28,793 bases of DNA from Acidimicrobiia bacterium (GTDB lineage Bacteria; Actinomycetota; Acidimicrobiia; IMCC26256; JACDBD01), in NCBI GenBank assembly GCA_031177445.1, contig JAPSGP010000001.1, positions 1 to 28,793 on the forward strand. Direction: 5' to 3'. The notes beneath the pieces are model-generated. The model was given only the letters and a program-made list of their open reading frames with translations. It did not search any database and was not told the origin of the DNA. Of the stretch, positions 3,069 to 20,365 are shown piece by piece (position 1 is the stretch's first letter; every line of letters begins with the position of its first letter). The position numbers and the translations under genes are program-made.

Positions 3069-4241
3069 TCACGGCAGCGGTTCGGTGGCGACGTCGAAGT
3101 ACTCGCAGTAGCGCTTCGCCTTCTCCATGACCTCGCCCGCGTCGAGGCCGGTATCGGCCCACGTGTAGCCGTGCCTCCCGAACTTCTGGGCGTCGTTGTC
3201 GGCGAAAAAGCTGCGCATGCGCGACTCGAGCGCAGGCGTGAGCTCGGCGCCGAGATGGGAATAGATCGCCCGCAGAGTGGCGACCGGGTCGGCGAGGAAC
3301 TCGGTGTACTGCACGTCGAGCACTCGGCCCGGCGGAATGGTGCCGTCCTCACGTGCGGTCACTGACCGATCAAGGGCGTCGAGGACCGGATCGGCCCACT
3401 CGGCGGCTACGCCGGCGACGGTCACCCCGTCGCTCGCGGTCGCGTGTACCACCGCGAACAGCGAGGTGAGCGAGGCGATGATGCGCCGCGGGTCGCGATG
3501 CGTCTGCACGAGCACGGCTCCCGGGTACTCGGCCATGAGGGCGGGCAGGGCCCACAGGTGGGCACCGGATTTGAGGATCCACCGCTCGCCCGGGTGGCGC
3601 CACTGCAGCAGCTGCAGGAACCCGCGGTGCCAGCGATAGGCGGTCGCCATGTCGGCCTCGTGGTTCAGCCAGTACATGTACGCGGGCAGGTTGTACTGGC
3701 TCAGGAAGATGCCGCTCTTGAACTCGCTGCCCATGAACACGATGCATTCCTGCCCCAGCCGCGCCCCCATCGGGTGCATCGACCGCATCACCGGGCGAGC
3801 CTCGTACGCCATGTCGATGCGAGCCTGCGACTCGGCGATGCGCGGATCCGTCTCGTACGTGGCGGTCTCGGGCGGTGGACACGGCTGGTCCACCTCCCAG
3901 GTACGCGGGATGCGGTTGTCCGGGTCCTGGCCGAGGAGGTCGTGCAGGATCGTCGTTCCGGTGCGACCCATACCGATCATGACGACGGGCGGGGTCACGT
4001 CGGTGGCGGCGATCTCGGGATGCCGCCGATGCCAGTCGACGATCTGCAGCCGGTTCGCCAGGTGCGCGACCAGCCCCTCGGGCGCGATGACCCGGCCGAG
4101 GTCGTTCAGCCGCGCCTCGGTGCTCAGCCCGTCGACGAGCCGGTCGAGCCCGTCCCGGAAGGTCGGGTCGCCGAAGTCGTCGAGCCCGGTGCGATCCTGT
4201 GCAGCCTGCAGGAGCAGGCCGGCGTCGAGATCGGATGGCAT
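3069..4241 (-). CDS. PAPS-dependent sulfotransferase family protein (390 aa)
   Basis: 5'-PSB loop GMGRTGTTILHDLL, WILKSGAH, 3'-PB THRDP; N-terminal GLDDFGD..F.DGL typical of actinobacterial sulfotransferases; ATG overlaps the USP stop (TGATG). Confidence 0.9.
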   Translation of the reverse strand: MPSDLDAGLLLQAAQDRTGLDDFGDPTFRDGLDRLVDGLSTEARLNDLGRVIAPEGLVAHLANRLQIVDWHRRHPEIAATDVTPPVVMIGMGRTGTTILHDLLGQDPDNRIPRTWEVDQPCPPPETATYETDPRIAESQARIDMAYEARPVMRSMHPMGARLGQECIVFMGSEFKSGIFLSQYNLPAYMYWLNHEADMATAYRWHRGFLQLLQWRHPGERWILKSGAHLWALPALMAEYPGAVLVQTHRDPRRIIASLTSLFAVVHATASDGVTVAGVAAEWADPVLDALDRSVTAREDGTIPPGRVLDVQYTEFLADPVATLRAIYSHLGAELTPALESRMRSFFADNDAQKFGRHGYTWADTGLDAGEVMEKAKRYCEYFDVATEPLP

Positions 4242-16648: not shown

Positions 16649-17707
16649 ATGGCGGACACGGTGGTCGTCGGGGTGCTGTACCCGCCGCAGTGGTACGGCG
16701 ACCTCGACGGGTTCGGTCATGAGCTCGAGCGGATCGAGCAGCTCGACCCCCGCATCGAGGTCGTCGCCGAGTCCTACGACGAACCCCACGAGCTGCGCAG
16801 CGCACGGGGCAAGCCCGGGGTCGGCGAGCTGCGCGACCGCGCCCCGGCGCTCACCGACACCCAGCGCGCCGCCTTCGCCCGCGTCGAGGTCGCGCTCGCG
16901 ATCGACCTGCCGTTCGATGTCGGGGCGATCGCGCCCGAGCTGCGGTGGGTGCAGGCGGTCGGCGCCGGGACCGGGCAGCTCCAGTCGGCCGGGCTCGCCG
17001 AGGCCGGCATCCGGCTGACCTCGGCCGCGGGCGCCAACGCCGTGGGCATCGCCGAGTTCGCGCTCGCGCGCGTACTCGCGCACTGGAAGCAGTTCCGCGA
17101 GCTCGACGAGGCGCAGCGCCGCCACGAATGGGAACCGCGTTTCGGCCGCCAGCTCGCCGGCTGCACACTGGGGCTGCTCGGGCTCGGTGCGATCAACAGC
17201 GCGGTGGCAGCGCGGGCTCACGCCTTCGGCATGCAGGTGCTCGCGACCCGGCGCTCAGCGACACCGGGCGCGACCGCGCCGCACGTCGACGAGCTGTTCC
17301 CCACGACGGAGCTGCACGCAATGCTCGGTTGCTGCGACGTCGTCATCGCCGCGGTCCCCGAGACGCCCGAGACGCGGGGCCTGATCGACGCCGAGGCCAT
17401 CGCCGCCATGAAGCCGGGCGCGTTCTTCTGCAACGTGGGGCGCGGATCACTCGTCGACGAAGCCGCGCTCATCGACGCGCTCGAACGCGGTCACCTCAGC
17501 GCCGCCGCCCTCGACGTCGCCAGCATCGAGCCGCTCCCGCCCGACCACCCTCTGTGGGACACCCGCAACCTCTATCTCTCGCCCCACGCGGCGACGTCGC
17601 CGTCGGCCCTGTTCGTGAACCTGCACGAGCTCTTCCTCGACAACCTCCGCCGCTACCTCGCCGGTGAGCCCCTCGCCAACGAGGTCGAGCTGACGCGCGG
17701 CTACTAG
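16649..17707 (+). CDS. D-2-hydroxyacid dehydrogenase family protein (352 aa)
   Basis: WVQAVGAG, NAVGIAEF, LGLLGLGAI, PETPETRGLID, catalytic NVGRG (R), DV..IEPL (E), SPH (H); SD GAGGGGGG. Confidence 0.93.
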   Translation: MADTVVVGVLYPPQWYGDLDGFGHELERIEQLDPRIEVVAESYDEPHELRSARGKPGVGELRDRAPALTDTQRAAFARVEVALAIDLPFDVGAIAPELRWVQAVGAGTGQLQSAGLAEAGIRLTSAAGANAVGIAEFALARVLAHWKQFRELDEAQRRHEWEPRFGRQLAGCTLGLLGLGAINSAVAARAHAFGMQVLATRRSATPGATAPHVDELFPTTELHAMLGCCDVVIAAVPETPETRGLIDAEAIAAMKPGAFFCNVGRGSLVDEAALIDALERGHLSAAALDVASIEPLPPDHPLWDTRNLYLSPHAATSPSALFVNLHELFLDNLRRYLAGEPLANEVELTRGY

Positions 17708-17752
17708 AAACGAGCTCAGCCGCGACCGAGGACGGCGTCGGGCCGCGGCGGC

Positions 17753-18736
17753 TCAGGGGACGAGCATGACTTTGCCCACGGTGGCGCGGGACTCAAGGGC
17801 CCAGTGTGCGGCAGCGGCGTCGGCGAGGGGGAAGTGCTGTCCGATCACGGGCACGAGCCGGCCGGCGGCGAGGGCTGCGAGTGCCTCCTCCTCGAGCCCG
17901 CGCAACCCACCGGGTCGCTGCTGGATGCGCGCGCCGATGGCGCCCGAGACGGTGACGCCCTTGGAGAAGATGTCGCTCGCAGAGAGCTCGGTCAACACGC
18001 CGGACGAGTAGCCGAAGAGGATGAGCCGTCCACCCGGGCCGAGCAGCTCGAGCGCGGTTCGTCCGACGTCGCCGCCAACGCCGTCGAGCGCCACCGTCAC
18101 GTCGCGACCGTCGAGCGCGTCGCGCATCAGCTTGCTCCAGTCGGGCGAGAGGTAGTCGACGGCGAAGTGCGCGCCGAGCGCACGAGCTCGCTCGACCTTG
18201 GCCCCGCCGCCGGCGACGCCGACGACGGTGGCGCCGGCATTGCGACCTGCCTGCACGAGCAGGGAGCCGAGCCCGCCGGCGGCCGCGGTGACCAGCACCA
18301 CGTCGTCGGTAGTCAGCTGCGCGACCTCGAGGAGCGCCAGTGCAGTGCGCCCGGTCCCGATCATCGCCACCGCCGCGTCGGTGGCGACGCCGTCCCGCAG
18401 CACATGGAGCGACGTGACGTTGGCCACCGCGAGCTCCGCGTAGCCGCCGCTCGCCATGCCGAGGTGCGCCACCACCCGGCGATCGAGCCAGTCGTCGCCG
18501 ACCTGATCCCCGACCCTCTCCACCACGCCTGCGACCTCGCGTCCGGGCGTCATGGGCAGCTCCGACCGCGGGAACGGCCCGCCCTCGATGCCGGCGCGGA
18601 TGTTGGTGTCGACGAGGTGCACGCCCGCGGCCGCGACCCGGATCAGCACCTGGCCGGCGCCGGGCACCGGATCGGCGACCTCCTCGTAGCGCAGCGTCTC
18701 GGGCGGCCCGAACTCGTGCTGGCGAATGGCGTGCAT
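17753..18736 (-). CDS. NADPH:quinone oxidoreductase, MDR family (327 aa)
   Basis: MHAIRQHEFGPPETLRYEEV, GVHLVDT, TPGREVAG, VTAAAGGLGSLLVQ, GKVMLVP; SD GAGGAGG before ATG 18736. Confidence 0.92.
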   Translation of the reverse strand: MHAIRQHEFGPPETLRYEEVADPVPGAGQVLIRVAAAGVHLVDTNIRAGIEGGPFPRSELPMTPGREVAGVVERVGDQVGDDWLDRRVVAHLGMASGGYAELAVANVTSLHVLRDGVATDAAVAMIGTGRTALALLEVAQLTTDDVVLVTAAAGGLGSLLVQAGRNAGATVVGVAGGGAKVERARALGAHFAVDYLSPDWSKLMRDALDGRDVTVALDGVGGDVGRTALELLGPGGRLILFGYSSGVLTELSASDIFSKGVTVSGAIGARIQQRPGGLRGLEEEALAALAAGRLVPVIGQHFPLADAAAAHWALESRATVGKVMLVP

Positions 18737-18772
18737 CGTCGTCGCCTCCTCGCGGCGGAATGCTCGGAGCCG

Positions 18773-18803
18773 ACCGTATGACCTCAAGCGAACTCGAGGT
18801 CAA
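18773..18803 (-). promoter_or_regulatory. SoxR-type MerR promoter and operator upstream of the quinone oxidoreductase
   Basis: Minus strand TTGACC-19 bp-TACGGT; dyad TGACCTCAAG-CGAA-CTCGAGGTCA (18779-18802); ACCTCAAGCGAACTCGAGGT matches the SoxR box ACCTCAAGTTAACTTGAGGT at 17/20. Confidence 0.85.
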
Positions 18804-18936: not shown

Positions 18937-19007
18937 CCCGTCGAACGTGTTGTTGCTCCGTTCACCACACATTTCGGTGTCGATGGAGCAATAGCACGTT
19001 CGACGGG
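18937..19007 (+). repeat. Long inverted repeat (REP/MITE-like or structured RNA)
   Basis: 23-bp arms CCCGTCGAACGTGTTGTTGCTCC / GGAGCAATAGCACGTTCGACGGG with two G-T imperfections; 25-nt loop. Confidence 0.75.
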
Positions 19008-19026: not shown

Positions 19027-19833
19027 TCACATCGGGTTCCAGCGCGGGGCGCGCTTCTCCCGAAACGCGGCCGCCGCCTCGGTCATGTTCCCGGTGAACG
19101 TGCCGAGCACCTGCTGGCGGTTCTCGAGCTCGATGGCGTGCCGCAAGCTGGGCGCGTCGACGTTCGTCCACAGGCCCTTCTTGGTCATCCAGATCCCGTA
19201 ATCGCTGTGCTCGGCGATCTGGTCCACCAACCTGATCGCGGCGTCGACGTGTTCGCCTTCGGGCACCAGGTCGTTCAGCATCCCGAATGCCAACGCCTCC
19301 TCGCCGGAGAAATGGCGCCCGGTGAGCATGAGCTCGGCGGCGCGGCTGGCGCCGACGATGCGGGGCAGGAAGTAGCTCACGCCGACGTCGCACGACGACA
19401 GGCCCACCCGGATGAAGACCGCACCGAACCGGGCCGTCGGCGTCGCGACCCGAAGGTCGCAGGCGAGCGCCAGCGCCAGTCCCCCGCCGACGGCGGCGCC
19501 GTGCACGGCCGCGATTACCGGCTTCTCGCACTCGTGCACCGCCAGGACGAGCTCGGCCAGGTGCTCCTGGAACCGGTACACGAGCCCGACCGGGCCGCGC
19601 CCGTCGGTGTCGGGCGCGGGATCGTCCTCGCCCGACAGGTCGGCGCCGGCGCAGAAGCCCTTGCCGGCGCCGGTGAGCACGATCGCGGCGACGCCGCGGG
19701 CGCGGTTCAGCGACGCGAACGCTTCCTTGGCGTCCGTCACCAGCGACGCCGACAGGGCGTTGAGGTGTTCGGGCCGGTTCAGGGTGACGACCGGCACCGA
19801 CGGCCGGGCGGTGTCGACGTCGACGTAGGGCAT
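19027..19833 (-). CDS. Crotonase/enoyl-CoA hydratase-isomerase family protein (268 aa)
   Basis: VTLNRPEHLNAL, LTGAGKGFCAGADL, KPVIAAVHG.AVGGG, ELMLTGR, F.EKRAP.W; start placed at ATG 19833. Confidence 0.93.
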   Translation of the reverse strand: MPYVDVDTARPSVPVVTLNRPEHLNALSASLVTDAKEAFASLNRARGVAAIVLTGAGKGFCAGADLSGEDDPAPDTDGRGPVGLVYRFQEHLAELVLAVHECEKPVIAAVHGAAVGGGLALALACDLRVATPTARFGAVFIRVGLSSCDVGVSYFLPRIVGASRAAELMLTGRHFSGEEALAFGMLNDLVPEGEHVDAAIRLVDQIAEHSDYGIWMTKKGLWTNVDAPSLRHAIELENRQQVLGTFTGNMTEAAAAFREKRAPRWNPM

Positions 19834-19853
19834 CCGGACCCCCAGGGTGGACG

Positions 19854-19873
19854 CTTGCATGTATACATGCAAG
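19854..19873. promoter_or_regulatory. MarR-type operator, perfect 20-bp palindrome
   Basis: CTTGCATGTATACATGCAAG between the divergent crotonase and MarR genes; overlaps a minus-strand TTGCAT-17bp-CACCCT promoter candidate. Confidence 0.8.
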
Positions 19874-19882
19874 AGTTGGCGG

Positions 19883-20365
19883 GTGACGACGAGCCCCGAT
19901 CCTGCTCCCCATGTGCACGAGATCGCCAGCTTCATGGAGCTGGTGACCGACATGGCCCGCACGCCCGGCTATCGCGACCGGCTCCTCCAGCGGGCGCGGG
20001 TCCCGCTGACCCGGTCGGGCTCCGCGGTCCTGTCGACGGTCGAGCGGGCCGGGCCGCTCGCGGTCTCGGAGCTCGCCGAGCGTCTCGGCGTCGACCAGTC
20101 CACCGCCAGCCGTCAGGTCAAGCCGCTCCAGGAGCGAGGCCTCATCAGCCGCACCAGCGACCCGGCTGACCGCCGCTCGAGCCTCCTGTCGATCACCGCC
20201 GCCGGACGGCGCGTGCGCAGCCGGGTGCGCGACGCGGTGCTCGACGACATCGACACCGCGCTGCGCGACTGGCCGCTCGAGGAGCGCACTCGGCTCGGCA
20301 CCCTGCTCGACCGCTTCGGGGCTGCACTGCGCGAGACGGTCGACTCGGTGCCCGCGCATCCGTGA
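19883..20365 (+). CDS. MarR family transcriptional regulator (about 160 aa)
   Basis: wHTH VSELAERLGVDQSTASRQVKPL.ERGLI.R..DP.DRR..L.IT.AG; start GTG 19883 inferred because upstream in-frame ATGs lie in or before the operator. Confidence 0.92.
   Translation: MTTSPDPAPHVHEIASFMELVTDMARTPGYRDRLLQRARVPLTRSGSAVLSTVERAGPLAVSELAERLGVDQSTASRQVKPLQERGLISRTSDPADRRSSLLSITAAGRRVRSRVRDAVLDDIDTALRDWPLEERTRLGTLLDRFGAALRETVDSVPAHP

Follow-up and report, generated by a model that had tools for sequence, protein, structure and literature searches.

A single oxidoreductase gene in an uncultured soil actinobacterium is very probably driven by a MerR-class promoter that is bound by the organism's own SoxR, the regulator being oxidised by redox-active molecules and the gene belonging to a small regulon that operates without soxS. 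The promoter lies at 18803-18773 on the minus strand of the window, i.e. the whole stretch of 28,793 nucleotides of DNA analysed here, which is contig C551 of a soil MAG of 3.48 Mb (79% complete, 621 contigs, 69.6% G+C, contamination 4.5%). The sequencing runs that contain the locus are DNA runs of soil metagenomes only. An earlier note on this DNA had read the site as a SoxR-type promoter; this reading is supported, and all the computational tests proposed with it came out favourable. As far as its sequence goes, the promoter is a well-preserved, ordinary case of a circuit known from Streptomyces and Pseudomonas.

Read directly on the minus strand, the site consists of TTGACC, the 19-bp spacer TCGAGTTCGCTTGAGGTCA and TACGGT, with the following elements:

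18798..18803, minus strand: -35 hexamer TTGACC, of which TTGAC is invariant across 26 aligned orthologous promoters
18779..18802, minus strand: predicted SoxR operator (soxbox), overlapping the -35 hexamer by 5 bp and occupying the 19-bp spacer (18797-18779)
18802-18793, minus strand: operator arm 1, TGACCTCGAG
18792-18789, minus strand: operator centre TTCG, 4 bp
18788-18779, minus strand: operator arm 2, CTTGAGGTCA
18773..18778, minus strand: -10 hexamer TACGGT (TAnnnT type), 19 bp from the -35 hexamer
18764..18768, minus strand: predicted transcription start zone, about 6-9 nt 3' of the -10 hexamer, placed from promoter geometry
18745..18749, minus strand: Shine-Dalgarno sequence GGAGG, 8 nt 5' of the ATG, read directly

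The over-long spacer between the two hexamers is that of a MerR-class promoter, and the inverted repeat centred in it is of the CCTCAAG-N4-CTTGAGG type that characterizes a soxbox. The arms of this 10-4-10 dyad pair at nine of their ten positions, the single mismatch being a G in place of the consensus A. The -10 hexamer is GC-rich; in the orthologous promoters its first and sixth positions are invariably T, while the A at the second position is found in 22 of 26. A scan for conventional sigma-70 promoters with spacers of 16-18 bp between 17600 and 19100 finds no promoter. From the predicted start zone, the mRNA would carry a leader of about 30 nt. The window copy, with its Shine-Dalgarno sequence and a gap of 36 nt between the -10 hexamer and the ATG (18736), is unlike most orthologues from Acidimicrobiales MAGs, in whose upstream regions (L041-L081) the start codon follows the -10 hexamer by 6-8 nt, implying leaderless mRNAs.

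The surroundings of the promoter are as follows:

17753..18736, minus strand: gene of a QOR-like MDR oxidoreductase (P0001), 327 aa by translation, monocistronic
17715..17730, minus strand: weak terminator-like hairpin just past the stop codon of P0001, only suggestive since one was found against 0.4 expected
16649-17707, plus strand: 2-hydroxyacid dehydrogenase, convergent, downstream of P0001 and unrelated
19027-19962, minus strand: enoyl-CoA hydratase, upstream of P0001 and unrelated
18937-19007: near-perfect hairpin of 71 nt that separates the SoxR promoter from the enoyl-CoA hydratase stop (19027)

The 71-nt hairpin is an observation in its own right. It is very stable, and folded as RNA it does better on the plus strand, at -54.7 kcal/mol (z = -9.0), than in the gene sense on the minus strand, at -42.8 kcal/mol (z = -6.0). 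It may shield the SoxR promoter from read-through.

Dyads can arise by chance or act at the RNA level, and a 41-nt stretch at the site does fold as RNA (-20.6 kcal/mol, z = -4.4). The probability that the repeat is a chance palindrome, or a hairpin or terminator of the upstream enoyl-CoA hydratase transcript, is nevertheless negligible. When up to two mismatches are allowed, the pattern of the whole architecture has a single match in the window and none in 100 dinucleotide-preserving shuffles, which bears out the earlier description of TTGACC-19-TACGGT with a 10-4-10 dyad. The dyad has no U-tract, and the far stronger hairpin at 18937-19007 already stands 3' of the upstream gene. Across the genome, ACCTCAAG-N4-CTTGAGGT with at most one mismatch occurs twice, against about 0.01 occurrences expected by our own estimate from base composition. 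Finally, the spacing between -35 and -10 is fixed in at least 26 orthologues despite differing upstream neighbours, and these conservation data effectively refute the reading as a chance palindrome or terminator. The observed promoter and dyad architecture is thus confirmed as real.

Conservation has been followed in 47 related loci drawn from a collection of species-representative genomes. In at least 26 of them, TTGAC(C)-19-T(A)nnnT with the soxbox dyad lies directly upstream of the orthologue. The proteins behind these boxes share 47-72% identity overall, and 65-72% at MAG loci labelled Acidimicrobiales or Actinomycetota. Box-bearing loci are also found in Pseudonocardiaceae (Allokutzneria, Saccharopolyspora, Saccharothrix, Actinosynnema, Actinophytocola and Saccharomonospora) and Nocardioidaceae (Nocardioides and Aeromicrobium). 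A maximum-likelihood tree shows the box in every clade save the monophyletic Glycomyces and three single rows, namely G023 (a genome from the same family), a Solirubrobacteraceae MAG and a remote Patulibacter sequence. Given this distribution, the operator is ancestral and conserved in the orthogroup. Closer to the window the gene itself is rare: at a threshold of E <= 1e-75, an orthologue is present in 2 of the 264 genomes of the order, the other copy being that of G023 (58% identity, boxless). The best homologues in 40 same-order relatives, at up to 58% identity, lack the box as well, so that conservation is shown in more distant genomes.

The distribution of SoxR itself is less informative. 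The regulator is encoded in all five box-bearing genomes tested, and also in four of five genomes whose orthologue is boxless, so its presence does not discriminate for the box. Within the same order it is patchy (9 of 41 sampled genomes, this one included). None of the orthologues has soxR within 1.5 kb, apart from that of Aeromicrobium stalagmiti (NZ_JABSTZ010000002.1, L073/L090), where about 1.1 kb, containing other ORFs, separates soxR from the orthologue with its box. This is a weak linkage, and the sole near one among the 47 loci.

The cognate regulator is present in the same genome as the site. The earlier note had suggested a search for a MerR protein with a CIGCGCxSxxxC motif, and such a SoxR is encoded at C162:3488-3940 on the minus strand (150 aa), on a contig separate from the window. 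It scores 204.7 bits on the TIGR01950 equivalog model (cut-off 116.9), matches the Pfam families MerR, MerR_1 and MerR-DNA-bind with an N-terminal MerR HTH, and combines this HTH with the dimerisation helix and the cluster motif of SoxR proteins, the sequence CIGCGCLSLRVC representing the CX2CXCX5C motif of the [2Fe-2S] cluster. Its identity to SoxRs in genomes of the same family is 74-76%, which argues that C162 is not a contaminant contig. With E. coli SoxR it shares 54% identity over 139 residues, gap-free, including the same CIGCGCLS cluster motif. Between the third and fourth cysteines, it has LRV where E. coli SoxR has RSD, and a Leu opens this triplet in 15 of 15 actinobacterial SoxRs examined. 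This region is said, after Sheplock in 2013 and Lee in 2015, to tune the inducer range. None of the eight MerR-type matches of the genome lies on the contig of the window, in keeping with the earlier statement that the window holds no soxR. The gene being monocistronic and distant from soxR, its description as a distal regulon member is apt.

The number of MerR-type matches leaves room for another regulator of this family, answering to another signal, to use the box. At least seven matches besides SoxR are available, and one of them, a SoxR-like paralogue on contig C468 (7957-8358, 157 aa; L002:1480-1953, plus strand), reaches 80 bits with the SoxR model and has retained all but one of the four cluster cysteines (DCRCASLDVC). 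One of the other predicted boxes of the genome, TGAAGCACGCTTGAAG on contig C80, is also the most divergent from the canonical soxbox. The possibility seems very unlikely: the paralogue does not reach the SoxR cut-off and is missing the first cluster cysteine, it has its own, differing dyad directly upstream (TTGAACTCAGGTTCAA, C468:7928, minus strand, 18.4 bits), and the window dyad is a canonical CCTCRAG..CTYGAGG in a genome that encodes a true SoxR. The C468 site is of the 19-bp-spacer type, TTGACT-TGAACTCAGGTTCAAGCCC-GAGGAT, and the paralogue may be a separate redox- or metal-sensing MerR.

Control by the C162 SoxR is also consistent with the other sites of the genome. A weight matrix derived from 23 unique promoters of orthologues in other genomes, with the window excluded, ranks the window site first (44.2 bits), followed by sites on C321 (34.9 bits), C58 (33.4 bits) and C80 (27.0 bits); the reversed genome, used as control, gives none at or above 16 bits. 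These four strong sites were first found by a consensus scan and then by the matrix, and all four have TTGAYC-19-TAnnnT. Behind them, in addition to the window gene, stand a small PF17648 protein (C321), an NADPH-dependent FMN reductase (FMN_red; C58) and a DrrAB-like ABC exporter with ABC_tran plus a DrrA C-terminal domain and ABC2_membrane (C80). More boxes thus exist in front of typical non-enteric SoxR targets, and conservation of the site at orthologues is accompanied by further sites at typical regulon genes. Pattern scans of relatives with three mismatches do not rise above the reversed-pattern control, and only matches to the full promoter architecture have been used.

A further possibility is that the box was inherited or transferred with the gene and is now a decaying relic, uncoupled from SoxR. 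The rarity of the gene in the order is compatible with horizontal acquisition, promoter included, and in Glycomyces the orthologues have lost the box while SoxR is retained. Decay does happen in this genome, since the box beside soxR (C162:3971) is degenerate, its -10 hexamer being destroyed. A relic would be expected to drift as that box did, whereas the window site tops the soxbox promoters of the genome, with its -35 and -10 intact and spaced by exactly 19 bp. The relic explanation is accordingly held to be very unlikely, and an operator in working relation with the C162 SoxR is preferred. The degenerate box itself, TTAACT-TCAAGTGAGCTTCAGATCA-GCCCGG (C162, 3968-3998), stands 30 bp from the start codon of soxR and faces a gene for an Abhydrolase_9 membrane protein. 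It looks like the relic of a soxR-divergent promoter that serves the PF17648 gene in relatives, and might still be used in soxR autoregulation.

The PF17648 ('Luciferase domain') proteins are located as follows:

C321 (L009), 3112-3142, plus strand: soxbox promoter of this genome
C321 (L009), 3186-3527, plus strand: PF17648 gene of this genome
L100, 1101-1451, minus strand: relative behind a soxbox
L102, 1561-1908, plus strand: relative behind a soxbox
L104, 1568-1921, plus strand: relative behind a soxbox
L106, 245-610, minus strand: relative behind a soxbox

This genome and four others of its family have these proteins of 113-121 aa directly behind canonical soxbox promoters. All five have an invariant G-H-x-H-G, and the relatives share 36-45% identity with the copy of this genome. 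The soxbox of the PF17648 gene adjoins soxR, divergently, in three of the four box-bearing relatives (G002, G005 and G010), a layout that resembles soxS/soxR of E. coli. The PF17648 gene may thus be the most conserved SoxR target in this family, and a literature search found PF17648 mentioned in no paper. PF03284 (PhzA/B) is not matched in the 79%-complete genome, and the control genomes are likewise without a match.

The protein encoded by the window gene is best named from its family. Its Pfam domains are ADH_N, ADH_zinc_N and ADH_zinc_N_2 of the MDR superfamily. None of its 327 residues is a cysteine, and it is consequently devoid of a zinc site, while AAAGGLG is present as dinucleotide-binding motif. 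It is thus a two-domain MDR protein that lacks zinc ligands and has the AxxGxxG motif for NADPH. The best curated models are those of the PIG3 and Qor subfamilies, with scores far under their cut-offs (176.8 against 296.8 bits for TIGR02824, PIG3; 134.2 against 348 bits for NF008024, Qor), which is why the name QOR-like MDR is preferred to Qor. The earlier term 'quinone reductase' stands as far as the QOR-like MDR family is concerned, and below the curated Qor and PIG3 cut-offs it is a guess at family level. Homologues in the PDB are quinone oxidoreductases and a 2-haloacrylate reductase, matched over the full length with E = 1e-33 to 1e-47, the top match being 9VXK, labelled 'oxidoreductase'. 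The fold signature, the lack of zinc ligands and the AxxGxxG motif are shared with the zeta-crystallin/QOR branch (1QOR, E. coli Qor; 4RVU, M. tuberculosis Qor; 3JYL, P. syringae; 1WLY, 2-haloacrylate reductase), from which the window protein differs in lying under the curated Qor and PIG3 cut-offs. Possible substrates are quinones and activated C=C bonds, and the annotation offered is 'SoxR-regulated QOR-like oxidoreductase'.

The events at the promoter can be outlined by analogy with the family. The C162 SoxR would occupy, as a dimer, the CCTCGAG-N4-CTTGAGG dyad that lies within the spacer; the -35 and -10 hexamers, 19 bp apart, would be too far from each other for efficient use by RNA polymerase. 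Redox-active molecules such as quinones and phenazines would oxidise both [2Fe-2S] clusters of SoxR, and the oxidised dimer, still bound, would distort and under-wind the spacer, bring the hexamers into register and permit transcription of the single gene. The product would be an NAD(P)H-dependent, zinc-free QOR-type MDR oxidoreductase that presumably reduces or modifies the inducing compound. Along with this gene, the small direct regulon without soxS would comprise those of the FMN reductase (C58), the DrrAB-type exporter (C80) and the PF17648 protein (C321). Every feature seen at the window site fits the established SoxR model in the summary given by PMC5288332 (citing Watanabe 2008, Singh 2013 and Lee 2015), in which a dimer sits on a dyad in an over-long spacer and oxidation of the cluster alters its hold on the DNA, leading to the open complex. 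Quinones and phenazines oxidise SoxR directly (PMC5288332). From the behaviour of the family we infer SoxR binding, DNA distortion, the inducers and the enzyme substrate, and transcription start and induction at the window promoter are likewise presumed.

The novelty of these results is one of lineage only, as SoxR-controlled quinone or enoyl-type oxidoreductases are established in Actinobacteria (SCO4266/ecaD and SCO0320ext; PMC4146615) and in-silico soxbox surveys over 176 genomes have been published (Dietrich 2008, as cited in PMC4146615). No SoxR regulon described for Acidimicrobiia came up in a literature search, in agreement with what the earlier note had supposed. The lineage is itself a tentative assignment, based on the labels of the nearest orthologues and on RpoB, which is 89-92% identical within the family of this genome, 79-88% within its order, 72-81% to one copy in an 'Acidimicrobiales' bin and 72% to Allokutzneria, values that suggest Acidimicrobiia. 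The direct, soxS-less SoxR regulon is thereby extended to an uncultured soil actinobacterial lineage, and a compact regulon of four promoters is defined that is testable in a heterologous actinobacterial host. Two aspects appear mildly new: the recurrence of PF17648 proteins as predicted SoxR targets in this family, and the retention of the soxbox by one MDR orthogroup over several actinobacterial orders, which makes this orthogroup a reliable marker of SoxR regulons. The understanding of SoxR and MerR-type activation is unchanged, and existing models stand unchallenged.

A broader interpretation is put forward tentatively. The cysteine-free MDR orthogroup, always with its own soxbox, and the PF17648 protein could form the core of the SoxR targets in Acidimicrobiia-like actinobacteria of soil, uncultured organisms in which no pathway for a redox-active antibiotic is obvious; the regulon would handle the quinones and phenazines of neighbours and would have spread partly as gene-plus-operator cassettes. 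If this were true, the regulon would constitute a system of defence against, or processing of, compounds made by neighbours.

Among known systems, the soxS promoter of E. coli, read from NC_000913 as TTTACC-TCAAGTTAACTTGAGGAAT-TATACT, has the same 19-bp spacer and an identically placed dyad. The window site agrees with it at 15 of 18 positions in the CCTCAAGTTAACTTGAGG core, at 16 of 20 over the 20-mer and at 21 of 31 over the whole promoter. The identity of 17/20 to the SoxR box, as originally given, holds against an idealised perfect palindrome and becomes 16/20 against the soxS 20-mer, a trivial difference. The sole direct target in enterics is the divergent regulator gene soxS, whereas the target in the window is an enzyme gene on a contig other than that of soxR.

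The regulon of P. aeruginosa (mexGHI-opmD, PA3718 and PA2274), as outlined in PMC4146615, is closer in kind, being small and direct, composed of transporters and a small-molecule-modifying enzyme, and induced by redox-active metabolites. Its transporters are of the RND and MFS types, in contrast to the ABC-2 type of the MAG, and unlike the MAG regulon it is without an MDR oxidoreductase.

The closest counterpart is found in S. coelicolor, where the SoxR regulon consists of SCO7008/ecaA, SCO1909/ecaB, SCO1178/ecaC, SCO4266/ecaD, SCO2478 and SCO0320ext, all targets having soxboxes in a common promoter architecture (PMC4146615). The orthogroup of the window gene and PF17648 are absent among the S. 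coelicolor and P. aeruginosa targets named in that paper. The present regulon differs in belonging to an uncultured soil organism outside Streptomyces, represented by a MAG of about 3.5-4.4 Mb, the closest named orthologues of the window gene carrying Acidimicrobiales labels, in having a PF17648 target instead of the monooxygenase and epimerase targets, which are not seen, and in that no endogenous redox-active antibiotic is known for the MAG organism. Direct targets that SoxR activates in S. coelicolor include an ABC transporter, SCO2478 (a flavin reductase) and two oxidoreductases, SCO4266 and the quinone oxidoreductase SCO0320ext (PMC4146615). The two regulons overlap by kind of gene (ABC exporter, NADPH flavin reductase, MDR-type and quinone oxidoreductases), and as the gene set mirrors that of S. 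coelicolor, the regulon of the MAG is of an already known type. Both organisms belong to the Actinomycetota, and both display direct control by SoxR without SoxS, through a soxbox placed between -35 and -10.
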